From contig OZ250169.1 in NCBI GenBank assembly GCA_965237955.1, forward strand, positions 1,216,001 to 1,280,000: a stretch of 64,000 nt of DNA, written 5' to 3'. The position numbers and the translations under genes are program-made. Below the pieces are notes generated by a model. It ran no database searches. It had not been told where the DNA came from and worked only from the letters and a program-made list of their open reading frames with translations. Below, in pieces: positions 13,990 to 32,011 of the stretch (position 1 is the stretch's first letter; every line of letters begins with the position of its first letter). Source of the DNA: Candidatus Marinacidobacterales bacterium (GTDB lineage Bacteria > Acidobacteriota > Vicinamibacteria > Marinacidobacterales > SMYC01).

Positions 13990-14255
13990 AGTTGATGGCG
14001 GAAGCACCGCCATTTGACTCTTCGAGTCCATAGAGCGTAGCGATGTTCGGGTGGTTCAGCGAAGCCAGGACCTTTGCTTCTCGCTTGAATCGGGCTAGGC
14101 GTTCTTCGTTCTCAGCGAACTCCTCGGCCAAGACTTTGATCGCCACGTCCCGGCCGAGCTTGGAGTCCTTTGCCCTATAGACCTCTCCCATCCCGCCCTT
14201 ACCGATGGGCTCGAGGATCTCGTAGTGGGCGAGTTTGTGACCAGGTTAGAGTGAC
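13990..14255 (-). pseudogene. Ser/Thr protein kinase N-terminal remnant
   Basis: HYEILEPIGKGGMGEVYRAKDSKLGRDVAIKVL..LARFKREAKVLASLNHPNIATLYGLEE, then truncated; early in-frame stop. Confidence 0.85.
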
Positions 14256-14463
14256 ACGACGTCGACGATGTTACGATGATGGTCGCCGGTCGGCAACTCA
14301 TGAAACCGTCAAGAATCGTCCAAAGCTGCTCGTGAGCTTTTGCAGCCCCGGCAACCCGTGCCGCTGTATGTATTCTTCTTTTTTTCTCCACGTCGACTCC
14401 CGTTGCTTGAAGCTTCCCGGCTGTCTACAATCTCTAGAACTCTTTCGCCGGTCACTAGGGGAG

Positions 14464-15550
14464 TGCCTTGGTGCACAACTCGCGATCTCGGTCCACAATT
14501 GTCCTTTACTCACGGATTCGAGGTTCCCCATGAGCATTTTCAAACGCACTCAGCGGAAGTATGTGAAGAAGGCCTATCGCGTGAGGAATTGGCGTGAATA
14601 TGAGGCGGGTCTACGCAACCGTGGGAGCCTGACCGTCTGGATCTCGCTCACCGCCGGCAAGCTTGTGAACTGGGACGCGCCCCGGCCGAGGAGGAGGAAC
14701 CCGGGCCGTCAACGCAAGTACTCGAACCACGCCATCGAGACGGCTGTCACCCTGGGCATGGTGTTTCATCTGTCATCTAGGCAGAGCGAGGGATTGCTGC
14801 GGTCGTTGTTCGCTCTGATGAAGCTAGACAATGATGTGCCCGATCACACCACGATCTCGAGGCGCAAGGCGAAGCTGGGTAAGGTCCCCTTCTACCAAGA
14901 CAAGCAGAAGACGCCGTTGCACATCTTGATCGACAGCAGCGGTCTCGCTGTCCACGCCGGCCAGCTGCGCAGAGCACCAAAGAGCAGGGACTATCGCAAG
15001 CTCCATCTGTGTGTCGACGAGCAGACTGGCGAAGTCGTCGCCGGCGAGCTGACGAGCAAAAGAGCCCGCGATTCATCGCGGGTTGCATCGCTTGTCGGAC
15101 AGATCGACAGTCCCATCTCATCGGCCAGAGCTGACACCGCATACGACGCCGGCGGCGTCTATGAGGCAATCGAGAATCACAGCGCTCATTGCTCGCCGAG
15201 GGTGCTGATACCGCCGCGCAAGGGCGCCCAGCTCGCATCGGGGCCGGCGAGCAGCCGACAGCGCAATCGCAACATTGCAGCACAAGCTCGGCTCGGCAAA
15301 CGAAAGTGGCACACAGAATCGGGCTACAGCAAACGGAGCAAAGTCGAGACAACGTTCCATCGCTACAAGGCTATCGTGGGCTCAGCGATGCGAGCGAGAG
15401 GGTTGGCGGCACAGAGAGTCGAGGCAAGGATCGGGTGCAAGATTCTCAACACGATGACGGCGCTCGGGATGCCTGATAGCGAGATGATCGGATGATGGGA
15501 GTCGGGGCCAAGCGAGCTCTCGGCCTCTATCGGAGTTGTGCACCAAGGCA
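14464..15550 (+). mobile_element. IS5-family (IS903 group) insertion sequence
   Basis: Perfect 18-bp IR TGCCTTGGTGCACAACTC / GAGTTGTGCACCAAGGCA; no target duplication visible. Confidence 0.9.
14530..15495 (+). CDS. IS5/IS903-type DDE transposase
   Basis: YRVRNWREYEAGLRNRGSLTVW, VPDHTTISRR, IDSSG, YRKLHL, ADTAYD, SGYSKRSKVETTFHRYK. Confidence 0.93.
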   Translation: MSIFKRTQRKYVKKAYRVRNWREYEAGLRNRGSLTVWISLTAGKLVNWDAPRPRRRNPGRQRKYSNHAIETAVTLGMVFHLSSRQSEGLLRSLFALMKLDNDVPDHTTISRRKAKLGKVPFYQDKQKTPLHILIDSSGLAVHAGQLRRAPKSRDYRKLHLCVDEQTGEVVAGELTSKRARDSSRVASLVGQIDSPISSARADTAYDAGGVYEAIENHSAHCSPRVLIPPRKGAQLASGPASSRQRNRNIAAQARLGKRKWHTESGYSKRSKVETTFHRYKAIVGSAMRARGLAAQRVEARIGCKILNTMTALGMPDSEMIG

Positions 15551-16332
15551 TCGCCGAGCCACGAATCGTTTTCCCGGCGGAAGCGCGCCTCGCCAACGAT
15601 AGGCTCGTCTACCGCAACCTCGGGCATCATCTCGTGAACGAGCGAGCCTTCGATGGTATGGGTGAGACTCGCCTCCGCGAGCAACGGCGCAAACGACTCG
15701 ATCCGGATCGTGCCCGTCCCATACGAGGCGCCTTTCTCAACACGGAAGTCGGTGACTTCAGCGCTCGTGGGACCGATGCGCAATCGCGCGCTTACCGCAT
15801 CGAGGACAGGAAAGCGCTCGCGTGCGGTCAGACGAGCTCGTCCGGTAGCGAGACTCCCTTCCCAGGACCCATCGTGAGGAACCACGCGAGACTCGATGTC
15901 CTCGAGCTCGAGATCGCCGAAGATCAGGAGTCCGTCGGTGACCGCGACGGCGATGCCGAAGAGCCCGGTGGGCAATCGTAGCGGAGCTCCAGTCTCACTG
16001 TCCCCCGGACGGACGCGAACTTCCGGCGAACGAACCATGAGTGACGTCGTGCTCCAAGGACTGAAACTGAGGACGAGCTCGTCCACTCGAACCGATACAC
16101 CTTCGCCGGCAGAGGACCAGGCGAAGCCGAAGCCGCGAATCTCCCCAAGCCACAGGCGGTAGTCCAGGTGCTCGACACTCGAGCTACCGCCGAGACGATC
16201 ATCCAATGACTTGATGATGAACCGCCGCGCCGCGTCCTTGAACCTGGACGTGTGGACCAACAGGCCGATGAGACAAAGCGCAGCCAGGCAGTAGGCGAAC
16301 GCTTTGAGTAACGATCGACCCTTGGTTTTCAC
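15551..16332 (-). pseudogene. AsmA/TamB-like envelope protein, 3' truncated by IS5
   Basis: N-terminal TM anchor followed by beta-rich repeats; the frame runs into the IS5 right IR. Confidence 0.55.
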
Positions 16333-18096: not shown

Positions 18097-18915
18097 ATGA
18101 CGATAAAAACATTGCGGCATTGGATACGAAACTTGGCACCGTGGTGCTTGGCCCTCACGCTCGTCGGTTGCAGCGCGAGCCAGCAAACATCTGTGCCGAC
18201 GCCCCCAGAGCCCCCGACGTCGCCGTCGTCACCGACGGACACGGGGGAATTCGAAGCGACGCCTACCACGCCGTCCCCAGCAGAGGCGCCGTCCGCGGAA
18301 GCACCATCGCTTCCCGAGCCCGCCGGCGAATCAGGAGACGAGACCGACGCCGCAGGCGAAGAGGCCGAGGCCGGCGGTGAAGCGGAAGCTGAGGCCAGCG
18401 CAGAAGCATCTGCCGCGGACGCACCGGCCGGGGGTGCGGAAACTTCGGAAGAGCGACGGGCCGGGCTCGATGGCAAGCTCGATGAATCGCTTCGTGAGTT
18501 CGACGGTCTCATTCTCAAAGAACAAGAAATCCTCGATGAGCGCCGCGAAGAAACCGCTGCGAATGCAGGCGGTGGCGGTGGTCTCGCAAGTGCGGAAGGA
18601 AGCACCGGTGGCGGCGGCAGCACTGAAGACGCCGATGTCGATGTCGATGCCGCATCCCAGGAGCAACGGGGAGGCACGGGTGGATCGCCTGACGCTCCGC
18701 CCGAGGATTCCGCACCGGCCTCACCGGAAGCCACGATCGACGGTGACCCCACGGCAACAGACCTCAATGGTCGGGTTCCCGGGGATGTCGGCGACGGTCG
18801 CGATGACGACATCGTGGCTCGCCAGCTCCGCGAGGCGGCCATGCAGGAAAAGGATCCTGCGCTTCGCGAACGACTGTGGGACGAATACCGCACGTACAAG
18901 AGCGGCACTAAATAG
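18097..18915 (+). CDS. Acidic low-complexity lipoprotein with a helical C-terminal motif (operon gene 1)
   Basis: Lipobox LVGC; long P/E/A/G-rich linker; short helices LDGKLDESLREFDGLILKEQ and DDDIVARQLREAAMQEKDPALRERLWDEYRTYK. Confidence 0.8.
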   Translation: MTIKTLRHWIRNLAPWCLALTLVGCSASQQTSVPTPPEPPTSPSSPTDTGEFEATPTTPSPAEAPSAEAPSLPEPAGESGDETDAAGEEAEAGGEAEAEASAEASAADAPAGGAETSEERRAGLDGKLDESLREFDGLILKEQEILDERREETAANAGGGGGLASAEGSTGGGGSTEDADVDVDAASQEQRGGTGGSPDAPPEDSAPASPEATIDGDPTATDLNGRVPGDVGDGRDDDIVARQLREAAMQEKDPALRERLWDEYRTYKSGTK

Positions 18916-18931
18916 TAATGTGGAGGCAGCC

Positions 18932-20161
18932 ATGACGGCAACGAGTTGGGCTCGAGTGGTGACGGCATCGATTCTCGTCCTCGGACTCATCGCGACCTCC
19001 GCGCTGGCCGAAGACAAACCCGTCGAGCTCGTGCAAGCTCAAACGGAAGTGCCGGAGGAATTGCTGCTCGACGTCGGTATCCAGCTCTTCGACCCCGGGC
19101 TTCCCGACGACGAGTACGAACGCTACCTGCTCGAAGAGAAGGGTGTCTTCGCCGACGTGCGCAAATCCGAAGCGCGCTATTTCCCGCTACGCCTCAAACA
19201 AGCTCTGGAGACTTCGGGGTTTTGGGGCGCGGTTCGCCTCGTGCCATACTCTCACGTCGTCGACGTTCGTATCGGCGGCTTGATCTGGAAGTCCAACGGC
19301 AAGAAGCTGGAAGTCTTCATCAAGGTCGTCGACGCGACCGGCAAAGAGTGGCTCGACAAAGGCTATAAGGCTGAGGCCAACCGGCTGGCCTATTTGGACA
19401 AAGAGACCGACCGCGAGCCGTTCCAAGATCTCTACAACGAGATAGCGAACGATCTTCTCAAGGTGAGCAGAAAACTCGACGAGGAGGTCGTCGTCGAGAT
19501 CCGACGCATTACCGAGCTTCGGTTCGCGGACTACCTGGCGCCGACCGCGTTCGCGGACTACCTTGAGGCCAAGAAAACCAAGTACAAAATTGAACGGTTG
19601 CCTCCGTACGAGGATCCGATGATGCTCCGGCTCGCCGAGATCCGCGAGCGCGACTTCATGTTCGTCGACACCCTCAACGAGTACTACGCGGACTTCGACG
19701 CACAAATGAAAGAGCCCTACGACGGCTGGCGCGAGTTCAGCTATGAGGAGCAGGTCGCTCTCGATGAGCTGAACAAGAAGAAAAAGATGGAGATGATCGC
19801 GGGCATCGCCGCCGTCGTTGGAGGCGTTGTCGCGACCACCAACGGCGGACGCTGGGGTCACGGCGGAGGCCAAGTGGCCATTCTTGGCGGGATGGCAGCC
19901 ATCCAGGACAGCCTCCAGAAGGCCCAGGAAGCCGAGATGCACCGCGAGGGGCTTCGAGAGCTCGCCGCGTCGTTCGATTCCGAGATCACCCCCATCCTCC
20001 TCGATGTCGAGGGGGAGGTGTTGCGCCTCACCGGTTCCGTGGATACACAGTACGCAACATGGCGCCAACTTCTTCGTCACATTTTTGCAGCCGAGACGGG
20101 ACTGCCCTTGGACCCCAACGCCGCGCCGATTCCGGCGACGGAGGGTGAGTCCAAAAACTGA
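18932..20161 (+). CDS. Secreted uncharacterised protein with glycine-zipper hairpin (operon gene 2)
   Basis: GGAGG RBS + ATG at 18932; signal peptide ending ALA; IAGIAAVVGGVVA..GGGQVAILGGMAAI segment between helical stretches. Confidence 0.8.
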   Translation: MTATSWARVVTASILVLGLIATSALAEDKPVELVQAQTEVPEELLLDVGIQLFDPGLPDDEYERYLLEEKGVFADVRKSEARYFPLRLKQALETSGFWGAVRLVPYSHVVDVRIGGLIWKSNGKKLEVFIKVVDATGKEWLDKGYKAEANRLAYLDKETDREPFQDLYNEIANDLLKVSRKLDEEVVVEIRRITELRFADYLAPTAFADYLEAKKTKYKIERLPPYEDPMMLRLAEIRERDFMFVDTLNEYYADFDAQMKEPYDGWREFSYEEQVALDELNKKKKMEMIAGIAAVVGGVVATTNGGRWGHGGGQVAILGGMAAIQDSLQKAQEAEMHREGLRELAASFDSEITPILLDVEGEVLRLTGSVDTQYATWRQLLRHIFAAETGLPLDPNAAPIPATEGESKN

Positions 20162-20180
20162 CTCTCGGTTGGACCCGGCC

Positions 20181-22514
20181 ATGACGGCTCTGGCTCCCGG
20201 TCAGATTCTCGGCGAACGCTTCGAACTCATCCGTCGACTCGGCGAAGGAGGGATGGGCGAAGTGTGGCTCGTGGAAGATTTGGAGCTCTCGGATCGTGTC
20301 GTCGCCAAGATGGTGCCGCAGGTTGCGACCGAGGACCATCTCACTCAGCTGCGACGTGAGTGCCGCCACGCGAGAAAACTCGTCCACTCCAATATCGTCC
20401 CCGTCTACGATTTCCATCGCGCTTCCGGCGTTAGCTTCATCACCATGGCCTACGTCGAAGGTTCCGACATCGGCTCGCTGCGCGGTCGCCCGATCGAAGA
20501 CGTTTTGCCACCGTTGATTGCGGTTGCTGGTGCGCTCGTTTATGCCCACGCACGAGGGATCGTCCACCGCGACCTCAAGGTTGCGAACGTGCTGATGGAC
20601 TACACCGGCGAGCCGCAATTGTTGGACTTCGGGATCTCGGGCCTCGTCGCGCAAGAAAGAAGCGTCGACGGCATCAATATTAAGGGCGGAGGCTCCGAAG
20701 GATCGGCGAGCCCGCAACAGCTCGCCGGGGCTTCACCATCGGTGAGAGACGACATCTACGCTTTCGGCGTGCTCGCCAGCGATCTCCTGAGCGGGCAAAA
20801 ACTCCCGATGAAGCTCGACGCGCTCCTTAATGCCGCAATGAATCGCGAGCCGCGACATCGGCCGCAGACCATGTCCGAAGTCAAGAGCGCGCTCGAGACG
20901 ACCCCGAGTGCACTCGACGCGCCAGCGGCGAAAGAAGTCAAGTTGGCACCGCCACCGCGTGTGAGCCGGGTCGATCCGATCGTGCCCGTCGAAGTAGGGG
21001 CTCGCGAAGCGCCGCCAGTCGATGATGTCCCCTCTGTTCGCTTGGAGCGCGACGTCTCTGGAGGCGGCGTCGGAAGCAAAACCTTTGCCGCGTTCGTCGT
21101 GCTGCTCGCGCTCGCCGCCGGTGTTTTCATCGTCCTACCTCGCTGGGTCCCTCGCTTGGTCGACGATTCGGCCTCGCCGGTTGCAGGTGGACAAAATGAA
21201 CGGGCTGAACAGGCTGAACAGGCGGTTGCACCGCCACCGGCGTTGGAGGAAACCGACGTCGACGACGAAATCAATCTCGAAAACCTCGCGCAAAAGATGA
21301 CCGCGGCGGAGAACGTTCGCGCGCGCGCGGTCGCGTTGCGCGAATCCCTAGATGCGCTAAACGCCGGTGTTTGGGGCGGCGATGCCTATCGAGATGCTCT
21401 AGAAGCTCTCACCCGCGGTGAGGAACAGATGGGACGCCGCGCATTCACGGAGGCCGGGGCCAGTTTTCAAGGAGCACTTTCCGAGCTCGAATCGGTTCGT
21501 GCCAGCTCGACCAGCATCGCCGCCGATGCCATCCGGCGCGGACGAGAGGCGCTCGCCGCGGGAAGCTCGACCGAAGCCGAGGACGCGTTTGCACTAGCCC
21601 TCCAGATCCAGCCCTCGAACCCGGGGGCGAAGCGGGGTCGCGCGCGCGCCAAGGTGCTCGACGAGGTAAGAAATCTCGTGGCACGCGGGGAAGAGCTCGA
21701 ACGTCGAGGCGAGCTCGAGGGCGCTGCCGATAGCTACCGCAAAGCGGTAGCGCTCGATGCGCTCGCTCGAGCCGCGCAGCAAGGTCTCGCTCGTATCGAC
21801 TCGAGAGCGTCGGAGGAGGCCTTCACCCGAGCCATGTCCGAGGCGGTCGCAGCGTTAAACCGGCGTGACTTCGAAGTGGCACGCGCCGGCTTCGAGCGAG
21901 CCCGCGCGATCAAGCCCGACGCACCCGGCGTCGCCGATGGGCTCGAGGCCGTCAAGGAAGGGGAGCGAATCCAAGCTATCGCCCTCCACCGTGAAAAAGC
22001 GATGGCCTTCGAAACGCGAGAAGCATGGCGCTCTGCAGAGCAGCAATATCAAGCCGTGCTCGACATGGACGACACCATCCGATTCGCGCAGGAGGGTAAA
22101 GCGCGGGCTCTCGTCCGAGCCGAGCTGTCAGAGAAGCTCGAGTTTCACATCGGCCGTCCGGAGCGGTTGGCCGAAGACAAAGTTCTCGAGGAGGCATCCA
22201 CGGTCCTGGAAAACGCCAGTGCCGTTTTGAACGCTGGTCCCAAGATTGAGGCGCAGATCGCCCGCCTGACGGATCTGGTCGCCGAGTTCTCGACACCGGT
22301 TCAAGTCCGTCTTCTCTCTGACGGAAAGACCGAAGTCGTCGTCTACAAGATCGGAACGCTCGGCAAGTTCGCTACCCACGCGCTCGTGCTCCGTCCGGGC
22401 ACGTACACGGTGGTGGGACGGCGCCAAGGCTTTCGTGATGTGCGATACCGGCTCGTCGTCCACGCCGACACGCCACCGGAGCCACTAGACGTCCGTTGCC
22501 AGGAGGAGATTTGA
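20181..22514 (+). CDS. Membrane Hanks-type Ser/Thr kinase with periplasmic TPR-like repeats and C-terminal PEGA-like domain (operon gene 3)
   Basis: GEGGMGEV, VAK, HRDLKVANVL, DFG; TM FAAFVVLLALAAGVFIVLP; TPR-like helices (AFALALQIQPSNPGAKRG); LRPGTYTVVGRRQGFRD. Confidence 0.9.
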   Translation: MTALAPGQILGERFELIRRLGEGGMGEVWLVEDLELSDRVVAKMVPQVATEDHLTQLRRECRHARKLVHSNIVPVYDFHRASGVSFITMAYVEGSDIGSLRGRPIEDVLPPLIAVAGALVYAHARGIVHRDLKVANVLMDYTGEPQLLDFGISGLVAQERSVDGINIKGGGSEGSASPQQLAGASPSVRDDIYAFGVLASDLLSGQKLPMKLDALLNAAMNREPRHRPQTMSEVKSALETTPSALDAPAAKEVKLAPPPRVSRVDPIVPVEVGAREAPPVDDVPSVRLERDVSGGGVGSKTFAAFVVLLALAAGVFIVLPRWVPRLVDDSASPVAGGQNERAEQAEQAVAPPPALEETDVDDEINLENLAQKMTAAENVRARAVALRESLDALNAGVWGGDAYRDALEALTRGEEQMGRRAFTEAGASFQGALSELESVRASSTSIAADAIRRGREALAAGSSTEAEDAFALALQIQPSNPGAKRGRARAKVLDEVRNLVARGEELERRGELEGAADSYRKAVALDALARAAQQGLARIDSRASEEAFTRAMSEAVAALNRRDFEVARAGFERARAIKPDAPGVADGLEAVKEGERIQAIALHREKAMAFETREAWRSAEQQYQAVLDMDDTIRFAQEGKARALVRAELSEKLEFHIGRPERLAEDKVLEEASTVLENASAVLNAGPKIEAQIARLTDLVAEFSTPVQVRLLSDGKTEVVVYKIGTLGKFATHALVLRPGTYTVVGRRQGFRDVRYRLVVHADTPPEPLDVRCQEEI

Positions 22515-24955
22515 CCTCTCCGAAGGGACGTTTCTACATTCGTGAAGCCGATGGCACCCGTCGTCGCGTAGAGACGAGCGCGTTCCCGCTCGCCGTCGGT
22601 GGCACGAATGCTGATATTGCCATCGCCGTTTCCGGTCCGAACGTGGAGCCCCTCGCCCACCTCGCTCTCTCGGACGGCGAAGTATTCCTGCAACCCAACA
22701 TGTCCAACAGGGGGCGCGTTCTTTGTAACGGCGAGCCCGTGGCATCGTCGCAGTGGCTCCGCCACGGCGACGTTTTGTCGATCGGAGGGACCCGCATCGA
22801 AATCGAAGCGCGCGACGGCGGCTTTCGCTTTTGTATCGCGACAGCGGCGGAGAAAACGACCGACCCACCGATTTTGGAGGTCGCGTCAAAAACGCCCCCG
22901 GAACCGCCGAAGGGGGAAACCGTGGAGCCAATCGCGTTCACGCCGAGCTCGCTCGACGACGCGAGACGTCCACGGCGACGGTTGAAAGTTGGGGCGCTGA
23001 TGTTCTGGGGGGCGCTTGTCTTCCTGGGCGCTCTTGCATGGGCTCTATTCAACGCGCGTGGGGTGATGATCGAGATCGATCCGATGCCGGAGAGTGTCGT
23101 CGTAGACGGAAATGCGCTCGTCGTTGAGCTCGGCGGGCGTTTTTGGATGCACCCCGGCGCGTTCACCGTCGTCGCGGAAAAAGAAGGCTACCGGCGGCTC
23201 GAAGCACCCATCGAGGTCGGTGAGCCACGTAGCCAAACGTATGAGTTCTCGATGCAACGGCTTCCGGGGCGGCTCGCCATCACCACCATCCCGAACGAAG
23301 GAGCCGTGATCACGATCGACGGCGCCGAGCTCGGCACTTCCCCACTGCAGCCGGTGCAGCTCGAGCCCGGCGAGCATCAGGTGCTCGTCCGTGCATCCGG
23401 CTATCGCGACTTCCAGACCGAAGTCATGATCGAGGGCGAGGGCACCATCGTGAACCTCGAAGCGTCGCTCGAGCCACGATGGGCGCCGATCACGTTTCAA
23501 TCGAATCCGCCGGGTGCCATGATCCGGGTCGCGGGCAAGCCCCACGGTCCGACGCCGGTCACCGCAAACGTCATCGAAGGCACTCACGACTACGTCGTCG
23601 TTTTGGATGGGTACAAGCCCTACCGCGGCAGCGTGCACGTCGCCGCCGGCCAACCGCAAACGCTGAGCCCGGTGGCGTTGTCGCTCGTCGAAGGCACCAT
23701 CGCCCTTCTCAGTGTTCCCGCGACGGCGAACGTGACCCTCGATGGCGACTATCTTGGGCAGACACCCCTCGATGTCCATCTGACCCCGGGCGAAACGTAT
23801 CAGCTCGAGTTGTCGCGCGCCGGCTATGATCCCGTCACCCAAGAGATTTCGGTGGCGTCCTCGGCGAAGAAGACGATGACGGTTCGCCTCGAGCCTAGAC
23901 TCGGAGAGGTCGCACTCGTCGTCGATCCACCCGATGCCGAGCTCTACATCGACGGCGAGCACCGCGGCGCGGCCAAGCAAGTGTTGAACCTTCCAGCCAC
24001 CTCCCACCGCATCGAGATCAAGAAAGACAAGTACGAGAGCTTCGCCACCGATATCACCCCTCGACCCGGTTTTCCGCAAACGCTCGAAGTCAATCTCAAG
24101 ACCACCGCCGAGATCAAAGCCGCATCGATTCTCCCCGTGATCCAGACGTCCAAAGGACACGAGCTCAGACTCATAACCCCCAAACGCTTCGAGATGGGTG
24201 CATCGCGACGAGAGCCGGGAAGACGGGCGAACGAGTCGCTTCGCACCGTCGAGCTCACGCGCTCGTTCTACCTAGCGACCCGGGAAATCACCAACCGGCA
24301 GTTTCGCGAGTTCAGAAGCGGCCACCGCTCCGGCGCCGTCTCCGGGCACAACCTCGAAGTCGACCATCACCCGGTGGTACGTATCACCTGGCAGGACGCG
24401 GCCGCCTATTGCAATTGGTTGAGCCAACAAGAGTCGCTCCCACCCGCTTACGTCAACGCCGGCGGGAAGCTAATAGGCGCGAATCCGCCGAGAACCGGCT
24501 ATCGGCTTCCCACCGAAGCAGAATGGGCGCAGGCCGCGAGGTATGCTGGGGACACGAAGCTCAAATACCCTTGGGGGAGTGCGCTTCCGGTGGCGCCGGG
24601 CTCCGGCAACTACGCCGATGAGTCCGCGAAAGGTCTGGTGACGGCGACGGTGCCGAATTACAACGACAAGTTCCCGGTCACCGCTCCCGTGGACAGCTTC
24701 TCCGCCAACGAGCTCGGCATGTTCAACCTCGGCGGCAACGTCGCCGAGTGGGTGCACGACCTCTACACGATTTATCCGTCGGGCGCGCGTAAAGTGATGC
24801 AGGATCCCATGGGTCCAACCGAAGGAGAGTTTCATACCATTCGGGGTGCGAGCTGGATGCACGGAAGCGTGACCCAGCTCAGGCTCAGCTTCCGTGACTA
24901 CGGGAACAAACCGCGACCCGACGTCGGATTCAGGATCGCGAGATATTTGGAGTAA
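22511..24955 (+). CDS. FHA-like + TM + multiple PEGA + FGE/SUMF1-fold protein (operon gene 4)
   Basis: GAGGAG RBS, TTG overlapping the kinase stop; CNGEPV..LRHGDVLSIGG; PEGA repeats (SNPPGA.I...G.TP); GYRLPTEAEW, GGNVAEW, RGASW, GFR. Confidence 0.9.
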   Translation: MTSPKGRFYIREADGTRRRVETSAFPLAVGGTNADIAIAVSGPNVEPLAHLALSDGEVFLQPNMSNRGRVLCNGEPVASSQWLRHGDVLSIGGTRIEIEARDGGFRFCIATAAEKTTDPPILEVASKTPPEPPKGETVEPIAFTPSSLDDARRPRRRLKVGALMFWGALVFLGALAWALFNARGVMIEIDPMPESVVVDGNALVVELGGRFWMHPGAFTVVAEKEGYRRLEAPIEVGEPRSQTYEFSMQRLPGRLAITTIPNEGAVITIDGAELGTSPLQPVQLEPGEHQVLVRASGYRDFQTEVMIEGEGTIVNLEASLEPRWAPITFQSNPPGAMIRVAGKPHGPTPVTANVIEGTHDYVVVLDGYKPYRGSVHVAAGQPQTLSPVALSLVEGTIALLSVPATANVTLDGDYLGQTPLDVHLTPGETYQLELSRAGYDPVTQEISVASSAKKTMTVRLEPRLGEVALVVDPPDAELYIDGEHRGAAKQVLNLPATSHRIEIKKDKYESFATDITPRPGFPQTLEVNLKTTAEIKAASILPVIQTSKGHELRLITPKRFEMGASRREPGRRANESLRTVELTRSFYLATREITNRQFREFRSGHRSGAVSGHNLEVDHHPVVRITWQDAAAYCNWLSQQESLPPAYVNAGGKLIGANPPRTGYRLPTEAEWAQAARYAGDTKLKYPWGSALPVAPGSGNYADESAKGLVTATVPNYNDKFPVTAPVDSFSANELGMFNLGGNVAEWVHDLYTIYPSGARKVMQDPMGPTEGEFHTIRGASWMHGSVTQLRLSFRDYGNKPRPDVGFRIARYLE

Positions 24956-24958
24956 ACG

Positions 24959-25147
24959 ATGAAATGGATGATTTATTCACTCGCTGTGACACTTCTCGCT
25001 AGTGGCTCCCTGGTGGCGAGCTCGACCGCACCAAAAACCTACGAGAGCTCACAAACAGAACCCGAGCCAGATCCCGAGGAAGACGACTTCCTCCCCACTG
25101 AGAAAGTCCCAGCCGATAGCGCCATCTCGTTTCCAGTGGATATTTGA
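24959..25147 (+). CDS. Small secreted acidic protein (operon gene 5)
   Basis: GGAG RBS; signal peptide; fills the gap exactly between genes 4 and 6; ends DFLPTEKVPADSAISFPVDI. Confidence 0.75.
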   Translation: MKWMIYSLAVTLLASGSLVASSTAPKTYESSQTEPEPDPEEDDFLPTEKVPADSAISFPVDI

Positions 25148-25945
25148 ATGAAGAAATCGTACCCGGTCGAGTTCGTTTATCAAGCGCTATCTCTCATCGT
25201 CGCGATTATCGTCGTCCACGCCATCTACGTGCTCGTGGTGCGTCCGAAGGCCGACGTCGTTTTCGGCGAGCAGCAAGCGATGATGGAGATCGACCCGAAC
25301 TACGTTCAAGAGCGTTCGGTGTGGGTCATCATCCGTGATTTCGAACAAGAGACGTGCATCGTGCTCATGCTCTGGGCCATGGCGATCATGGTCTACAAAG
25401 GTGTGCTCGTGGCGCGTGAGCATCGCCTCCTCGAGATGGATCTCGTACCGGTGGACGAGGGAACGAAAATTCTCCCGGAGGACGCGCGCGAGTACGCGCG
25501 CCAGATGCAATCCCTGCCGGACTACGAGCAGCGGCTTTTGTTGCCGCGTTCGCTTCTCTCGGCGCTTCACCGCTTCCGCGCGACGCGCAACATTCAAGAC
25601 GTGTCGAACACCGCACACGGCGTGTGTGAAGCCGAATCCGAGCGACTCGAATCAGAGCTTTCGATGGTGCGCTACATCGCATGGGCGATCCCATCGATCG
25701 GGTTCATCGGCACCGTGCGCGGCATCGGTGAAGCGCTCGGCCAGGCGCACAGGGCCGTCGAGGGCGACATCGCCGGCGTGACCCAAAGCTTGGGGGTCGC
25801 GTTCAACTCGACGTTCATCGCGCTCTTGATCAGCATCGTGCTCATGTTCCTGCTCCATCAGCTCCAGTTGCAGCAAGAGCGGTTGGTCCTCGATACCGAA
25901 ACCTACCTCGACCATCATTTGATCCAACACCTCCAGGTTCCCTAG
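25148..25945 (+). CDS. MotA/TolQ/ExbB proton channel family protein (operon gene 6)
   Basis: IAWAIPSIGFIGTVRGIG..LGVAFNSTFIALLISI signature; 4 hydrophobic helices. Confidence 0.92.
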   Translation: MKKSYPVEFVYQALSLIVAIIVVHAIYVLVVRPKADVVFGEQQAMMEIDPNYVQERSVWVIIRDFEQETCIVLMLWAMAIMVYKGVLVAREHRLLEMDLVPVDEGTKILPEDAREYARQMQSLPDYEQRLLLPRSLLSALHRFRATRNIQDVSNTAHGVCEAESERLESELSMVRYIAWAIPSIGFIGTVRGIGEALGQAHRAVEGDIAGVTQSLGVAFNSTFIALLISIVLMFLLHQLQLQQERLVLDTETYLDHHLIQHLQVP

Positions 25946-25955
25946 GCGCCTCGAG

Positions 25956-27365
25956 ATGACCGTAGTCGCATTGGAGCTCAACGACGCGGGCATCTCTGCC
26001 GTCTCGGATGGAGCTCCCGATAGTCTCGCCATTCCCGAGAGCCCGGGATACGCGCTCGTTGAAGACGGGAGTGTCGTCACCGGAGTCGATGCCCGTGCTC
26101 GAGCACGGCTCAAGCCACGATTCACCCACACGCGATTCTGGGATGCTCTCGACACGACGCCCTTGTCGCGACCGTTTCCGAACAAGCTGAGTCGAGCCGA
26201 CCTCGCGCACGCCCATCTGAAGCACGTTTGGAAGAGTCTTCAGGATGACGGTGGGGTGGACGAAGCCGTGCTCGCCGTCCCCGGCTGGTACGGATTGGAG
26301 CAGCTGGGCCTCATCCTCGGCATGGCGCGGGCGTGCGACATCTCCGTCAACGGCATGATCGACTCGGCGCTGGCGGCCGCGGCCGGAGTGTCGGGACCGA
26401 GCGCAGCGTCCCCCGTGCACGCCGTCCATCTCGATCTCCATCTCCACCGGTGCTCCGCCGCGAGGATCGTGAGAGAAGATCGCCTCGTTCGCGAAAACAC
26501 CGTCGTCGACGACGACGTTGGTCTGATCCCGCTCTACGATGCTTGGGCCACGCTAGTGGCACAGTCTTTCGTTCGCCAGACGCGCTACGACCCGCTGCAC
26601 TCGGCCGAGAGCGAACAGAAGCTCTACGATCTGCTCCCGGGCTGGCTCGAGACACTGATCGACGACGACGAGGCAACGCTCTCGCTGACGCCAGCCGGAA
26701 AAGAGCTCGCGATCGAGCTCGACCGACGCCAGCTCGTTCACAGCGCAGGCTCGTATTACGAGTCGATCGCGGCGCTCGCAACCTCGGTGATGCCTGCCGA
26801 TGAGCCGGTGATGCTCCTCGTTTCCCATCGTCTCGGCCGACTCCCGGGTCTCGTCGAGAAGCTCTCCCGCGACGTTTCCGACAACCTCGTCCTCCTGCCG
26901 CCCGAAGCGGCAGCCGCGGGCGCGCTCGCCTACGACAGCCACGTCCCGAGCGCTCCGGAGAACGAGGGTTCTCTGACGTTTCTCACCAGCCTCCATCTCG
27001 GCGAAGGCGGCAAACCGCTCGCCGCCGATCCAAGCTTTCACGCAACCAGCGATGATGTGCGCTCGCCCACCCACCTGCTCCACGACGCTTCCGCGTACCC
27101 GCTCGATCCTGAGCCGTTCCTCCTCGGAGTATCCATCCCGGAAGGCAAACGCGGATTGAATCTCGCGGGTGACACCGCCGGGATTTCGCGCTATCACTGC
27201 AGCATCTACCGCATGAACGGACGCATCGTCGTCGAGGATCACAGCAAGTTCGGCTCGTTCGTGAACGGGACACGCGTTCACGAGCGTGCCGCGCTCGCAA
27301 TAGGCGACCGACTACGACTCGGCACGCCCGGTGTCGAAGTGCAGCTCATCGAGGTAGCGGACTGA
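25956..27365 (+). CDS. Degenerate Hsp70/actin-like fold protein with C-terminal FHA domain (operon gene 7)
   Basis: EAVLAVPGWY..MIDSALAAA and PPEAAAAGALAY resemble the Hsp70 nucleotide-binding domain; FHA ISRYHC..EDHSKFGSFVNG..GDRLRLG. Confidence 0.75.
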   Translation: MTVVALELNDAGISAVSDGAPDSLAIPESPGYALVEDGSVVTGVDARARARLKPRFTHTRFWDALDTTPLSRPFPNKLSRADLAHAHLKHVWKSLQDDGGVDEAVLAVPGWYGLEQLGLILGMARACDISVNGMIDSALAAAAGVSGPSAASPVHAVHLDLHLHRCSAARIVREDRLVRENTVVDDDVGLIPLYDAWATLVAQSFVRQTRYDPLHSAESEQKLYDLLPGWLETLIDDDEATLSLTPAGKELAIELDRRQLVHSAGSYYESIAALATSVMPADEPVMLLVSHRLGRLPGLVEKLSRDVSDNLVLLPPEAAAAGALAYDSHVPSAPENEGSLTFLTSLHLGEGGKPLAADPSFHATSDDVRSPTHLLHDASAYPLDPEPFLLGVSIPEGKRGLNLAGDTAGISRYHCSIYRMNGRIVVEDHSKFGSFVNGTRVHERAALAIGDRLRLGTPGVEVQLIEVAD

Positions 27366-28456
27366 TGGCGCGGCGACGCATCAACATATTCACGCTCTCT
27401 TTTCTGGACGCGATGATGTGCGGCTTCGGCGCGGTCGTGTTGTTCTTCATGATCATCAACGCGAGCTTCGGAAAAGTGTCGCGCGGGATGACCGGGAAAC
27501 TGCAGGGTGAGGTCACCCGGCTGGAGCAAGAAGTCCTCGAAGGCTACGTCCAGCTCGTCGAGCTCCGGAACTCCTTCGAGGAGATCGACCAGGAAAACGT
27601 CATTGCCGCAGGGTTATCGAGGCGGCTCATCGAGACTCTCACCGTAGTCCAGGAAGAGCTCGCAACCTACGAGAATTCGACGCTCGCAACGCGCGAGCAC
27701 ATTAACAAGCTCAAGACCGATCTGAAGACGCTTGAAGACGGGGTGAAACGGCTGTCGGCTGCGGGCCCGAGTGAGGAGACGCCTGGTGACCGTATCCGCA
27801 CGTTCGTTGGAGACGGCGATCGACAATACCTCACGGGGTTGAAGGTCGGAGGCCGCCGCATCCTCATTCTCGTCGACGTGTCCGCGAGCATGCTCGACGA
27901 GACCATCGTCAACGTCGTGCGCCGCCGCAACCAGTCGGTTGCGATCAAGAGGCGGTCCGAAAAATGGCAGCAGGCGGTCTCCACCGTGGATTGGATCACG
28001 ACCCAGATTCCGACTGACAGTCGGTTTCAAATCTACACGTTCAATACGAGCTCGGCGTCGGTCGTGCCCGGAAAGAACCACGAGTGGCTCGACGCAGGCG
28101 ATCGCGAAGTCCTCGACGAGGCCGTCCAACGCCTCCGCGGCGTCATCCCTAGTGACGGCACCAACCTTTACCGGGCGTTCACGTCGTTCCGCTCGTTGCG
28201 CCCGGCTCCCGACAATATCTACTTGCTCGTCGACGGTCTCCCCACACAAGGCCAACGACCACCGAGACGCGCCACGATCTCCGGAAAAGACCGCGCCAAG
28301 CTATTCAACGACGCCGTCAAAGAGCTACGGGACAACATTTCCATCAACGTGATCTTGTTCCCCATGGAAGGCGACCCCATGGCCGCAAGCGCTTTCTGGA
28401 AGTTGGCCCTGTTCTCGGGTGGCGCCTACATAAGCCCATCGGAGGACTGGCCTTGA
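27365..28456 (+). CDS. TM-anchored coiled-coil + vWA protein with ExbD/TolR-like N-terminus (operon gene 8)
   Basis: RRR..FTLSFLDAMMCGFGAVVLFFMII; MIDAS DVSAS, GTN, VDGLP. Confidence 0.88.
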   Translation: MARRRINIFTLSFLDAMMCGFGAVVLFFMIINASFGKVSRGMTGKLQGEVTRLEQEVLEGYVQLVELRNSFEEIDQENVIAAGLSRRLIETLTVVQEELATYENSTLATREHINKLKTDLKTLEDGVKRLSAAGPSEETPGDRIRTFVGDGDRQYLTGLKVGGRRILILVDVSASMLDETIVNVVRRRNQSVAIKRRSEKWQQAVSTVDWITTQIPTDSRFQIYTFNTSSASVVPGKNHEWLDAGDREVLDEAVQRLRGVIPSDGTNLYRAFTSFRSLRPAPDNIYLLVDGLPTQGQRPPRRATISGKDRAKLFNDAVKELRDNISINVILFPMEGDPMAASAFWKLALFSGGAYISPSEDWP

Positions 28457-29469
28457 GAAAGAGAAGAAGAAGACGCCGCGATTTCGATGCGTTCAACCTG
28501 TCGTTTCTCGACGTAGTCTGCTGCGGCTTCGGCGCGATCATTCTGCTCCTCGTTCTCACCAAGATCGGTGAGCCCCGCGCTCTCGAGAACATCAAGAGCG
28601 AGCTCGAAGGGCTCGTCGACAAGTTACAAGAAGAGCTCTTCGAGATCCGAGGCGAGACCAACGTTTTCGAGCGGGACCTGAAAACGAGAGTCGAGCAGCT
28701 ATCGACCGAGCGCGACGCCATAGCGCGCCTCCGCGGGGATCTCTCCAAGATTCAGGGCGTATTCGCCGCGACCCAACAACTCTCCGAAGTCAACGACATC
28801 GTCGAAGGACGGCTTCTCGCCGCCCAGCAGGACCTGACCGAGGAGATGAAGAGGTTGCTCGGCCGAAGCTACCGCCGACGTGAGAGCGACTCCACCGTCG
28901 GCGGCATCCCCGTCGACAGCGAGTACATCATCTTCATCATCGATACGTCCGGCAGCATGCGCAACTACGCGTGGCACCTGGTCGTCAAGAAAATGCAAGA
29001 GGTCCTCAACATCTACCCCAAAGTCAAAGGCATCCAGGTCATGAACGACATGGGGCAATACATGTTCGGGAACTATTCGGGGCGGTGGATCCCGGATACC
29101 CCGGGCCGGCGGAAGGTCATCCTCAATCGGCTGCGGAGCTGGGCGCCGTTCAGCAACTCGAGCCCGGTGGAAGGTATCATCCGGGCGATCCGAAGCTTCG
29201 CAGCTCCGGACAAGAAAATTAGCCTCTACGTCTTCGGCGACGATTTCAACGGCGATTCCATCGATCGAGTCGTGGAAACGGTGGATCGCATCAACAAGAG
29301 AGACAAGGACGGCAACCGCCTGGTCCGCATTCACGGCATCGGTTTTCCGGTGTTGTTCTCTCGGATCGGGTTTCAAGAGAACGGGGGTGTACGGTTTGCA
29401 ACGCTGATGCGTTTACTGTGTCGTGAGAACGGTGGCGCTTTTGTGGGATTGGGATCGTTGCGGCGGTGA
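28453..29469 (+). CDS. Second TM-anchored coiled-coil + vWA protein (operon gene 9)
   Basis: RRRR..FNLSFLDVVCCGFGAIILLLVL; MIDAS DTSGS, FGDD; TTGA overlap with gene 8. Confidence 0.88.
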   Translation: MRKRRRRRRDFDAFNLSFLDVVCCGFGAIILLLVLTKIGEPRALENIKSELEGLVDKLQEELFEIRGETNVFERDLKTRVEQLSTERDAIARLRGDLSKIQGVFAATQQLSEVNDIVEGRLLAAQQDLTEEMKRLLGRSYRRRESDSTVGGIPVDSEYIIFIIDTSGSMRNYAWHLVVKKMQEVLNIYPKVKGIQVMNDMGQYMFGNYSGRWIPDTPGRRKVILNRLRSWAPFSNSSPVEGIIRAIRSFAAPDKKISLYVFGDDFNGDSIDRVVETVDRINKRDKDGNRLVRIHGIGFPVLFSRIGFQENGGVRFATLMRLLCRENGGAFVGLGSLRR

Positions 29470-29470
29470 G

Positions 29471-29679
29471 CAGCATTCAGCATTCAGCATCCAGCATTCA
29501 GTACAGCTCGCGAACTTTGCCTTCGGACACTTTGCCCCAAACGCGGAGGAGCATCGCCTTCGGGCAGCGTTCGCTCTGGTTACCTGCGGCACGGTGCTGA
29601 TGGGTACGACGTCATTTACCGGCACGATGCTGGTCTGAACCGGACGCTGGATGCTGAATGCTGGATGCTGAGTGCTGAT
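29471..29679. repeat. Heptamer (CAGCAT[T/C]) tandem arrays in inverted orientation
   Basis: CAGCATTCAGCATTCAGCATCCAGCATTCAG at about 29471-29501 and CTGGATGCTGAATGCTGGATGCTGAGTGCTG at about 29647-29677. Confidence 0.8.
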
Positions 29680-32011
29680 CCTCAGTCGGATGAACATGCA
29701 GGTCTCGTTGCGGGAATGGGATACTTATTCCCGCGTCTTTGAGCTCGTCGTTGATGGTGACGTGCAGGTCGCTCGAGACTTGTAAGAAGTCGTCGATCCG
29801 GGTCCATACCAGCAGCCGGAAGTCGAGGGCGCTTTCCCCGAAGCCGACCATCAGCGCCGAAGGCGCGGGACTCTCGAGTGTTTTCGGATGCGCGCTCGCG
29901 GTGTCGCGGAGTATTTCCAATACTTTCTTCGGGTCGGTGCCGAGGGCGACGTGAACGAGAACTTCGACCCGGCGCGTCATGTCCGTGCGCGTCCAGTTGA
30001 CGAACTCTTTGGACACGAGGTCGCTGTTCGGTACGACGACCTCGGCGCCATCGAACGTCCGGATGGTGCTAGCGCGGATACCGATGCCGGTCACGATTCC
30101 GAAATGATCTTTCGTTTCGACGCGATCGCCGACTTTGATCGGTCTTTCGAAGATCAGAATCAGTCCAGAGACGAAGTTGCTGACGATGTTCTGGAGGCCG
30201 AAGCCAATGCCGACCCCCAACGCGCCAAAAACAACGGTTAGTTGCGTCGCGCTGAGCCCACCGGCGGCAGCCGCCAGTAACAGTCCCGAGCCCCAGATCA
30301 CGTAGTTGATGACGGAGACCACAGAGTGGTCCGCTACAGCGGGCAGACGAAGGCGGGGCAACATTTCCTCGCGCAGGACGAAGCGCACCATCCGCGCCGT
30401 GAACCATGTCGCCACCAGGATGACCATCGCCGCAACGACGCGACCTACCGACACGTCGAGCCCCCCCACGGTCGCAGACGCGGATAGCGCTGCCGCTGCT
30501 TTCTCGGTCAAAGGTTCGAGAAGCTGGAAATTTCTGAGCGAAGCTCGACTCCACCAAATGAACGCGACGGTCGCGGCGACGAGGAATACCCCGCGCGCGA
30601 ACATGTCGCCGTGCCGGCGAACGCTCGGGAAGATGGCGCCGAGCGGGCTCCGGACGGCGACGGGAACGAGAGCCGTCAACGCGAGGACGACAGTTGCCCA
30701 TGCGATGGCGCCAAAGGCGGCCGTCGTCGTCGCATCGGTCAAAGTCTCCGACAGATTTTCCCAACCTAGGATGTTCGCGATCAAGGAAACGGTCAGGAGC
30801 ACGGCCGCCATGGCGAGCAAGAACCAAGCGAAGCGCCACCAAACGCCCACCTTGGTCTTCTCATCCGGCCGCCACCGCGAGATCAGAGCCGCCACCGCTC
30901 CGAGCGCCAACGCGGTCACCAAAACCAGGAGAATCCTGCGAAGAAACGAACCGTCCGGGGCCAGCGCCCACAGACGATTGAGGACGAGCAGCACCATGGC
31001 ACCATAGAGCGCGGATCGCGCCGGTACCGGCAGGAGCCCTCGTCCGAGTCGCACGATGGGCACGATGGCAAGAACCAACACCATGTCCTCGACCGGACCA
31101 ACGGTGTTATCGAGCAGGAACACCATCGCGACGACGGTGAAGGCGACCGCCGTCGACAACGGCCGGGAGACAACGAACCGGGCACTATCCAAACGGTGGT
31201 CGTCGGGGGGCCATGAACGGCTAACGTATCGCGCGAGGAGAGCCGCGAACAAGAACGCGACGAAAGATGTCAAGAGAAACGTGAACCTCCCCGGGCGGGA
31301 CAGGATGAAGGCGACGAGAGTGTCGAGCCAATACTTCTGAGCCTCGACGGCGGAGGCGCGGATCGTGCTGCCTTCCGAAGACTCGCCCAATCGCCACAGG
31401 GGTGGCGTGTTCCGAGTCCAGACACGTGCTCGAACTTTGGCGGCGATGGCCGAGAGTCGATCGATCGCTTCCGCGGAAATCTCTCTGCCTTGTGACACCC
31501 GGGCGAGCACGGAACCGATGGCCTCACCACGTTCGGTGAGACGTCTGTCGACGCCATCCAATCGCTCCAACAGCCGGTCGATCTGCTCGACAATCTCGGT
31601 AGGGGCGTTCTCCTCGGTTGCGTTCTCGCGAGTGATTTCCCACTCGTCGCGAGCCGCCGAAAGCTCTTCGCCTTCCTGAGCGAGCGTCTGCCAACGCTCC
31701 TGAAGCTCGACCATCCACTGGGCCAGCTTTTCGTCGAACTCGCCCCAACCCAGGCGATGATCCGCGAGCATCCGCATCGAGATCTCGTCGCCCTTCACGG
31801 CGTCGAGGTTCCGACGAAGCTCCACGAGAACATCACCGGCATCGCCGACGGCAGCCTCGATTGCTTGTATCTCGTAGCTCGGCTCGAGCAAGGCTTCGAC
31901 CCGACGCAAATTCGCGCCGAGCTCGTCGGAGCGGACCGCCACATCCGCCAGCGGGATCGCAACCGGCACTTCGGCCGTTACCGCCGGCACCGACGCCTCG
32001 TCCTGTGCCAT
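29612..32011 (-). CDS. Large MscS-family (MscK-like) mechanosensitive channel
   Basis: Periplasmic coiled coil, many TMs, GALGVGIGFGLQNIVSNFVSGLILIFERPIKVGD, VVPNS, IPFPQRDLH; signal peptide appears out of frame. Confidence 0.9.
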   Translation of the reverse strand: MAQDEASVPAVTAEVPVAIPLADVAVRSDELGANLRRVEALLEPSYEIQAIEAAVGDAGDVLVELRRNLDAVKGDEISMRMLADHRLGWGEFDEKLAQWMVELQERWQTLAQEGEELSAARDEWEITRENATEENAPTEIVEQIDRLLERLDGVDRRLTERGEAIGSVLARVSQGREISAEAIDRLSAIAAKVRARVWTRNTPPLWRLGESSEGSTIRASAVEAQKYWLDTLVAFILSRPGRFTFLLTSFVAFLFAALLARYVSRSWPPDDHRLDSARFVVSRPLSTAVAFTVVAMVFLLDNTVGPVEDMVLVLAIVPIVRLGRGLLPVPARSALYGAMVLLVLNRLWALAPDGSFLRRILLVLVTALALGAVAALISRWRPDEKTKVGVWWRFAWFLLAMAAVLLTVSLIANILGWENLSETLTDATTTAAFGAIAWATVVLALTALVPVAVRSPLGAIFPSVRRHGDMFARGVFLVAATVAFIWWSRASLRNFQLLEPLTEKAAAALSASATVGGLDVSVGRVVAAMVILVATWFTARMVRFVLREEMLPRLRLPAVADHSVVSVINYVIWGSGLLLAAAAGGLSATQLTVVFGALGVGIGFGLQNIVSNFVSGLILIFERPIKVGDRVETKDHFGIVTGIGIRASTIRTFDGAEVVVPNSDLVSKEFVNWTRTDMTRRVEVLVHVALGTDPKKVLEILRDTASAHPKTLESPAPSALMVGFGESALDFRLLVWTRIDDFLQVSSDLHVTINDELKDAGISIPFPQRDLHVHPTEDQHSASSIQHPASGSDQHRAGK

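Follow-up and report, generated by a model that had tools for sequence, protein, structure and literature searches.

What partners a channel subunit of the TolQ/ExbB/MotA family when its operon holds two membrane-anchored vWA proteins where an ExbD, TolR or MotB would be expected? Ion motors of the 5:2 type are known to drive flagella, nutrient uptake, maintenance of the outer membrane, gliding and defence against phages. The locus considered here lies in a window of 64,000 nucleotides (nt) of Candidatus Marinacidobacterales bacterium (assembly GCA_965237955.1, contig OZ250169.1, positions 1,216,001 to 1,280,000), in which nine same-strand open reading frames (ORFs), g1 to g9, form a cluster at 18097-29469 on the + strand. 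It is closed by gene 6 (g6) and the two vWA genes, vWA1 (g8) and vWA2 (g9). We propose that these three proteins probably form a 5:1:1 ion-driven rotary motor whose heads would work on the envelope.

Anatomy and conservation of g6 and the vWA pair

The three genes at the centre of the question are the following.

25148..25945, + strand: g6, TolQ/ExbB/MotA-family channel subunit, probably with four transmembrane (TM) helices (PF01618, E 2.1e-14)
27365..28456, + strand: g8, vWA1, with a basic tail, a TM helix carrying Asp15, a coiled-coil stalk of ~97 amino acids (aa) and a vWA head (AF2 model, Foldseek, conserved columns)
28453..29469, + strand: g9, vWA2, with a basic tail, a TM helix carrying Asp20, a stalk of ~96 aa and a vWA-like head (sequence, conserved columns)

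The original prediction, made from the DNA sequence, had placed these three genes correctly, but it passed over a 469-aa gene lying among them (g7, 25956-27365). The vWA1 and vWA2 ORFs overlap by 4 nt. Read directly, the N-terminus of vWA1 is MARRR-INI-FTLSFLDAMMCGFGA and that of vWA2 is (M)RKRRRRRR-DFDA-FNLSFLDVVCCGFGA. Hydropathy finds one strong segment in each protein, at aa 13-31 and 18-36 respectively, overlapping the motif; a second window in vWA1 is marginal (1.53) and falls on a vWA strand. Sequences and hydropathy thus agree with the predicted basic tail and single TM helix with an F-x-D...CGFGA motif in both proteins. The Asp codons lie at 27407-27409 (Asp15) and 28510-28512 (Asp20).

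Conservation of this Asp among homologs had been put forward as a test of the idea. The residue was present in 119/119 vWA1 and 118/118 vWA2 homologs covering the position, out of 150 and 120 examined. These sets were gathered without a filter for Asp, and the vWA1 rows that do not cover it are mostly N-terminally truncated or fragments. Because alignment A1, used below for vWA1 columns, consists of 82 of the 150 homologs hand-picked as full-length, the unfiltered counts are the fair ones. Four residues after the Asp, a Cys is found in 120 of 126 vWA1 and 119 of 119 vWA2 sequences. The Cys had been called unusual for a TM helix; it is real but less unusual than thought, PomB having S27 and C31 in the same helix (PMC11725901). 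Neither helix contains a His, hence neither contains an SHLS motif, when the sequence is read directly.

In the AF2 model of vWA1 (83-row alignment; predicted local distance difference test score, pLDDT, 89.8), a continuous helix at residues 8-131 is followed by a disordered linker and a Rossmann-type head, and there is no separate plug helix in this monomer. Its top Foldseek matches are vWA domains, such as those of ITIH1, CLCA1 and BatB. The match of vWA2 to Pfam VWA_2 (E 6.7e-4) is under the cut-off, 32 of 75 members of its family match at E<=0.01, and its Atlas look-alikes are vWA-type clusters. The two proteins share just 23% identity and their stalks match in length (97 and 96 aa, ~145 Å). 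An intact DxSxS metal ion-dependent adhesion site (MIDAS) had been predicted in both. It is complete in vWA1, with D171 conserved in 79, S173 in 82, S175 in 79, T266 in 74 and D290 in 82 of the 82 sequences. In vWA2, D164-S166-S168 are invariant (74/74), but the fourth position is probably a Ser (S234 or S236) replacing Thr.

Residues 148-256 of g6 align without gaps with Escherichia coli TolQ (profile, E 8e-4), which pairs T189 with TolQ T145 and T222 with TolQ T178; both are invariant (69/69). Three windows of g6 pass the hydropathy cut-off for TM helices and the fourth is deduced from the TolQ alignment. Four further residues in or beside the TM helices are invariant (E66, E68, R191 and N220), R191 sitting where control TolQ has Trp in 28 of 28 sequences. 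These charged and polar membrane residues might form an intramembrane salt bridge or a dock for the TM helices of g3 and g4. The protein scores below the equivalog cut-offs of TolQ (TIGR02796, 29 vs 221 bits) and ExbB (TIGR02805, 19 vs 135 bits). It is one of four PF01618 genes in the host genome. The other three each lie beside their own partner, in a TolQ-TolR-TolA-like locus, an ExbB-ExbD-ExbD-TonB-like locus and a flagellar stator pair.

The axle question and the coupling ion

We analysed the genetic context of the vWA pair in relatives of the locus. At least 597 were confirmed among the 605 pattern matches listed, and the best 80 were kept as loci; this set is biased and non-independent because the fetch pattern contained the Asp and the loci are the closest relatives. 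Both vWA genes are present in 80/80 loci, often overlapping, with a gap below 150 nt in all 74 full-length cases. They are adjoined by g6 in 66 of 67 loci; loss of g6 in the sole exception (L077) was ruled out, since the gene is on another contig. A profile built from four host ExbD/TolR sequences, of limited sensitivity, gave 0 hits to exbD or tolR in the 80 loci, many of them incomplete, and 29 hits in 29 control tolQ loci. A Pfam scan of the window operon gave no ExbD, TolR or MotB match. One locus (L080) has a match to the host MotB, ~5 kb downstream.

These observations bear on the proposal that the vWA pair replaces ExbD/TolR/MotB within a g6 pentamer. The invariant Asp, the pore threonines, the linkage, the lack of detected exbD or tolR in 80 loci and the separate partners of the host's other three PF01618 genes speak for it, but the helices show no significant homology to the known partners. 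The motor idea for such pairs is already in print, as a computer prediction. Williams-Jones et al. 2025 (Mol Biol Evol, msaf138, PMC12204202) describe in section 8 and Fig. 4c-d a class called TPH-vWA, in which heterologous TM-tethered vWA pairs are predicted beside tolQ homologs that lack tolR or exbD. In their AF3 model of the Idiomarina set, the helices are inserted and both conserved Asp lie inside the Thr ring. The axle case thus rests on genetic context, conserved residues and this published model. Our own complex prediction, with four copies of g6 (55-260), vWA1 (1-80) and vWA2 (3-85), scored 0.04 against a mark of 0.32; it had no fifth ring subunit, no folded controls and a set-up unlike the calibration of the tool, and we counted it neither for nor against binding.

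Several observations weigh against the proposed axle. The comparison of the N-terminal helices with ExbD and MotB profiles that the original prediction called for revealed no significant similarity: in a Pfam scan of the first 45-50 residues neither ExbD (PF02472) nor MotB_plug (PF13677) matched at E<=10, and hhalign, run with 33-residue blocks anchored on the Asp, gave probabilities of 0.5-9% against TolR (33 rows) and host MotB (1 row). Four control helices reached 0.1-6.5%, so that the vWA helices do no better than one control (6.5%). In three of the four local matches, Asp was aligned on Asp. The likeness to TolR and MotB appears to be at the level of a motif, S/T-F-x-D after a basic tail. 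The helix may also pack differently, because nothing in TolR, MotB or PomB corresponds to the CGFG stretch. Inside the membrane, g6 itself departs from TolQ (R191 for Trp, plus E66 and E68). The host encodes an orphan ExbD near a kinase gene (G000:C1:7475695-7476063, L085), apparently truncated and resembling the Ton-type, ExbB-linked ExbD of the host, which could serve g6 in trans. Likeness to the Idiomarina set (PMC12204202) is one of same anatomy, not confirmed by sequence. A search of the openly accessible literature returned no experiment, phenotype or function for this motor class. To these points we add the bias of the 80-locus set.

Which ion would drive such a motor? The original prediction named the proton, which is an assumption because several pore positions resemble those of the Na+ stator PomAB. 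In PomAB, Na+ lies between PomA T158, T185 and T186 and PomB T21/D24; H+ stators have Ala at T158/T185 and Ile at A190 (PMC10374538). The H+ stator of R. sphaeroides retains all three threonines, and selectivity hinges on several factors (PMC11725901). We anchored the register of g6 and the vWA proteins by motif on PomA, PomB and TolQ sequences rather than computing an alignment of g6 with PomA; it may be displaced by the CGFG stretch, and the selectivity rules derive from stators remote from g6. In this register, T189/S221/T222 of g6 correspond to PomA T158/T185/T186. T189 and T222 are each found in 69/69 sequences, and S221 in 67/69, in 120/120 and in 16/16 diverged loci. The control TolQ triad is T/A/T in 28/28 (29 loci scanned, one unmatched by the pattern; G242 excluded).

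The partner helices show a similar picture. A Ser at Asp-3 is found in 72 of 82 vWA1 and 71 of 74 vWA2 sequences, where control TolR has Pro in 29/29, and the Leu at Asp+11 is invariant, like PomB L35. Position Asp+3 is S, C or T, like PomB S27, in 66/82 vWA1 and 74/74 vWA2 sequences (the vWA1 of the window has Met). With S/C/T positions like those of PomB, the TM Cys may plausibly line the ion path. Two g6 residues are of the H+ type at the positions of PomA M165 and A190 (A196 and L226), and L215 also departs from the Na+ pattern of M165, M179 and a small residue at A190. Part of the pore is consistent with the predicted proton, but S221, the Ser at Asp-3 and the Leu at Asp+11 are PomAB-like. 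A sodium gradient is likely available in the host, since its genome encodes a PomA-type stator and an NqrA that scores above cut-off. On these residues we lean towards H+ as the coupling ion and regard Na+ as a serious if less probable candidate. A literature search for a Na+-driven Tol/Ton-type motor found nothing relevant; such a motor, if real, would be notable.

The wider operon and its distribution

Upstream of g6 and between it and vWA1, the operon encodes six further proteins.

18097..18915, + strand: g1, predicted lipoprotein with an LVG-C lipobox (read by eye) and a long acidic low-complexity linker
18932..20161, + strand: g2, predicted secreted protein of 409 aa with no assigned family and an N-terminal hydrophobic segment
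20181..22514, + strand: g3, Ser/Thr kinase, TM helix (301-319) and predicted periplasmic TPR/helical region (Pkinase E 1e-25, TPR_2)
22496..24955, + strand: g4, degenerate FHA-like domain, TM helix (167-185), four PEGA repeats and a domain of formylglycine-generating enzyme (FGE)-sulfatase fold (PEGA E 6.5e-50, FGE E 1.2e-42)
24959..25147, + strand: g5, predicted secreted peptide of 62 aa with an acidic linker and a conserved C-terminus (conserved columns)
25956..27365, + strand: g7, soluble 469-aa protein with an Hsp70/actin-type fold and a C-terminal FHA domain (AF2 and Foldseek; FHA E 5.5e-12)

Neither g1 nor g2 has a Pfam or NCBIfam match. The former has a conserved C-terminal helical motif (DDxxARQLREAA...LWxEY), and the Atlas look-alikes of the latter are unannotated clusters only. 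A second g2 homolog (38% identity) lies apart from the operon, at G000:C1:3948411-3949568. Of the 46 loci that could be scored in full, 19 have the g3 kinase region, and across these 46 the kinase and the FHA-like domain of g4 are both present in 14, both absent in 26 and discordant in 6, a count based on crude thresholds and on kin that are not independent. The two domains are optional and tend to co-occur.

In all 38 rows in which the RGxSW motif could be located (38/38), the FGE domain of g4 lacks a Cys behind it. This Cys belongs to the catalytic motif of FGE, and a true formylglycine-generating enzyme is ruled out on this ground. Since the Cys is missing, g4 is probably non-enzymatic and GldK/PorK-like; it matches the GldK model with E 1.3e-30, yet with 107 bits against a cut-off of 350. 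The g5 peptide ends in ...PxExIxxDxxVxFPxDI-COOH. In the 58 loci that have g4 and g6 side by side, it always ends in P-x-[D/N]-[I/M]; 52 of these termini are [FY]PxD[IM] and the remaining six are LPxDI or FPSNI. An invariant penultimate Asp was ruled out, the residue being Asn in 4/58. We regard g5 as a candidate ligand or 'box' peptide. The model of g7 (AF2, pLDDT 91) matches Ssz1/DnaK in Foldseek (E 1.6e-20), with a profile match to SSB1 (E 3.3e-4), and g7 is, on its predicted structure, an Hsp70 nucleotide-binding fold followed by FHA. Judged against the Hsp70 consensus phosphate motifs, its own are degenerate (ELNDA, DLHLH); this rules out an active DnaK and makes g7 probably an inactive ATPase.

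Where upstream DNA suffices, g7 is present in 70/72 loci, g4 in 50/51, g3 in 47/48, g2 in 43/45 and g1 in 36/39. By their titles, the relatives are mainly Gammaproteobacteria and Desulfobacterota, with Vicinamibacteria and Myxococcales. When 400 genomes of the class to which locus L045 belongs were searched with a profile, 48 matched at 1e-6, among them 38 at E<1e-60 (including the centre genome and, separately, the unpublished G242), and 37 of these 38 have a second match. With 38 of 400 sampled gammaproteobacterial-class genomes matching strongly, this class is frequent among uncultured bacteria of marine and soil habitats. In the phylum of the host, 4/201 genomes match. Another 20 regions were extracted, the selection being made so that weaker matches were represented. 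In 16 of them we detected g1-g4, g6 and the vWA pair, except that g1 escaped detection in one; the other four are not this operon. Nine of the 16 have no g7 match between g6 and vWA1. A scan of 16 further loci found g5 in 11. Hence, the core comprises g1-g6 and both vWA genes, g7 being optional. Two carriers are in culture: Biformimicrobium ophioploci NKW57 (L045) and Pseudohalioglobus sediminis NY5 (L046).

Some loci are of interest in their own right. In a Myxococcales metagenome-assembled genome (MAG; L007), g1-g4 lie downstream of g6-g9 on the opposite strand, so the cluster is rearranged but intact. Three MAGs titled Klebsiella pneumoniae or Enterobacteriaceae (L010, L059, L061) carry operons like those of the Pseudomonadales/Pseudohongiella type, and their labels may be wrong. 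A sister system (L101, G483:C1:361000-375000) encodes a g6-like channel (AFYTTLL, T-T at PomA 185/186) and a single TM-vWA protein (IFSMSALDLFA...), surrounded, by eye, by FHA proteins, a PP2C-like phosphatase, trypsin-like proteins, kinases and Sel1-repeat proteins. Two loci (L099, L100) match it partially, the channel of L100 reading AFDTT. Four kinds of neighbour recur in the 80 loci: a lipoprotein lies downstream in 33, a TPR protein whose tail weakly resembles TonB_C lies upstream in 28, an M48 peptidase occurs in 20, and 11 have an OmpA-domain protein. Examples are at L055:12079-12717, L045:3-1118, L019:5793-7364 and L058:4742-5581. None of the four kinds flanks the operon of the window, and M48 alone has host homologs (tblastn).

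The promoter and terminator scan remained near the shuffled background (3 vs 1.6; 18 vs 11.1), and a search of a plasmid collection gave no match. Between the operon end and a convergent MscS gene lies an element of ~210 bp (29468-29680) with inverted arms of 34-36 nt made of CAGCAT(T/C) heptamers. Akin sequence at ~40 genome sites (98 high-scoring segment pairs) indicates a family like repetitive extragenic palindromes or miniature inverted-repeat transposable elements. Further upstream, a transposase-like ORF (14170-15495, read by eye) seemingly truncates an opposite-strand gene at 15382-16332.

Proposed mechanism, rival explanations and known systems

In the mechanism that we propose, g6 would form a TolQ/MotA-type ring of five subunits in the inner membrane, around one Asp helix from each vWA protein. 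As ions flow past the two Asp, the ring and the axle would rotate against one another, and the equal stalks of ~145 Å would pair as a coiled coil that takes the metal-dependent heads through much of the periplasm. Through its metal, a MIDAS domain binds a carboxylate of the ligand. A partner encoded in the operon would offer the heads such a group to hold, either on an acidic side chain or at a free C-terminus; the best candidates would be the g5 peptide, the C-terminal helices of g1 (DD...REAA) and g2. The motor might then pull or turn an envelope complex of g1-g5, rather like PorLM, which drives the PorKN ring with its FGE fold, and its output would presumably be work on the outer envelope. 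Kinase, FHA domains and the Hsp70-fold protein would constitute an optional cytoplasmic regulatory layer. We also formulated a more specific version, doubtful as a whole: a sodium-driven, non-flagellar 5:1:1 motor, whose axle would grip g5 or g1 via the MIDAS and drive a trans-envelope machine of g1-g5 with an FGE-fold hub, an independently evolved counterpart of PorLM-PorKN under optional kinase, FHA and pseudo-Hsp70 control.

MotB, ExbD and TolR are usually homodimers, and the vWA proteins might likewise be alternative axles, each a homodimer in its own g6 pentamer, yielding two motors with different heads. The strong divergence of the heads, in identity and in MIDAS details, fits this, as does the single TM-vWA gene that the sister family seems to use. 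Yet the two genes are adjacent and often overlapping in 80/80 and in diverged loci, the stalks are equal and published pairs are predominantly heterologous (PMC12204202), and we consider separate homodimers unlikely. It is harder still to credit that the vWA proteins lie off the axle, as adhesion or scaffold anchors or as TonB/TolA-like side transducers, with g6 borrowing a distant ExbD/TolR or acting alone. The helix has no significant TolR/MotB homology, the host has its orphan ExbD, and E66, E68 and R191 of g6 could pair with the Asp at the outer face of the ring, if that is where they lie. However, the Asp occupies the place that it has in TolR/MotB, F-x-D spacing included, and was aligned on Asp in three of four hhalign matches, the pore threonines are kept, the orphan ExbD is short and resembles the host Ton-type one, and neither helix has the His-containing SHLS motif (as defined in PMC12204202).

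The complex could also be a gated ion channel or envelope sensor, Zorya-like, in which a ligand bound to the vWA heads would let ions through or send a signal to the kinase/FHA/Hsp70-fold module. The operon also encodes a kinase, two FHA-like domains and what is probably an inactive ATPase, the kinase and the g4 FHA co-vary in the counts given above, and the monomer model of vWA1 is predicted without a separate plug helix. But it is the signalling parts that are dispensable and the periplasmic ones that are kept, and the kin in the co-variation count are not independent. Moreover, the gene order is stable across phyla and the GC content of the operon is close to that of the host (0.62 vs 0.60), neither of which is typical of a defence island. 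We regard such a sensor as improbable and retain the rotary motor as our favoured explanation.

Among known systems, the closest is TPH-vWA (PMC12204202), which shares the heterologous vWA pair, the helix Asp, the lack of SHLS and a tolQ-like neighbour with pore Thr and no exbD/tolR. Its published carriers are mostly Proteobacteria, and the proton-motive force is assumed. The host here appears to be of Acidobacteriota type, the closest homologs with a name coming from Vicinamibacteria. The main text of that paper contains neither 'kinase' nor 'PEGA' and its section 8 does not describe g1-g5 or g7, though its gene-cluster figure may show them; our literature search, within the scope given above, found no description of the full nine-gene operon. 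With its core idea in print already, the locus by itself does not amount to a discovery. Our analysis adds the list of core and optional parts, the g5 peptide, the identification of the Hsp70 fold in g7 and the coupling-ion question. The full parts list, the cultured carriers, the candidate ligand peptide and a clear question on the ion make the system testable.

With TolQR and ExbBD, the system shares a PF01618 subunit with equivalents of TolQ T145/T178 and a partner with a basic tail and one Asp-bearing TM helix. It differs in having a vWA head on a ~145 Å stalk instead of an ExbD domain (PF02472), in lacking a TolA or TonB gene in the operon, and in g6 R191/S221 and the partner Ser at Asp-3, where the TolQ and TolR controls have Trp/Ala (28/28) and Pro (29/29). 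MotAB and PomAB also have a four-TM A subunit, as g6 probably does, and S-F-x-D resembles PomB T21-F-A-D24, whereas the vWA proteins have neither an OmpA-like peptidoglycan domain nor a MotB_plug match and the locus is non-flagellar. GldL and GldM of the type IX secretion system are unrelated to g6 and the vWA proteins. The likeness to PorLM/GldLM, where an ion motor has a long arm in the periplasm and a partner of FGE fold that is no enzyme, is one of analogy, not membership; in that system, the FGE fold is a non-enzymatic hub, the PorKN ring, contacted by the motor arm (PMC12421860). In contrast, g4 is anchored in the inner membrane by a TM helix, carries PEGA repeats and falls far short of the cut-off of the GldK model.

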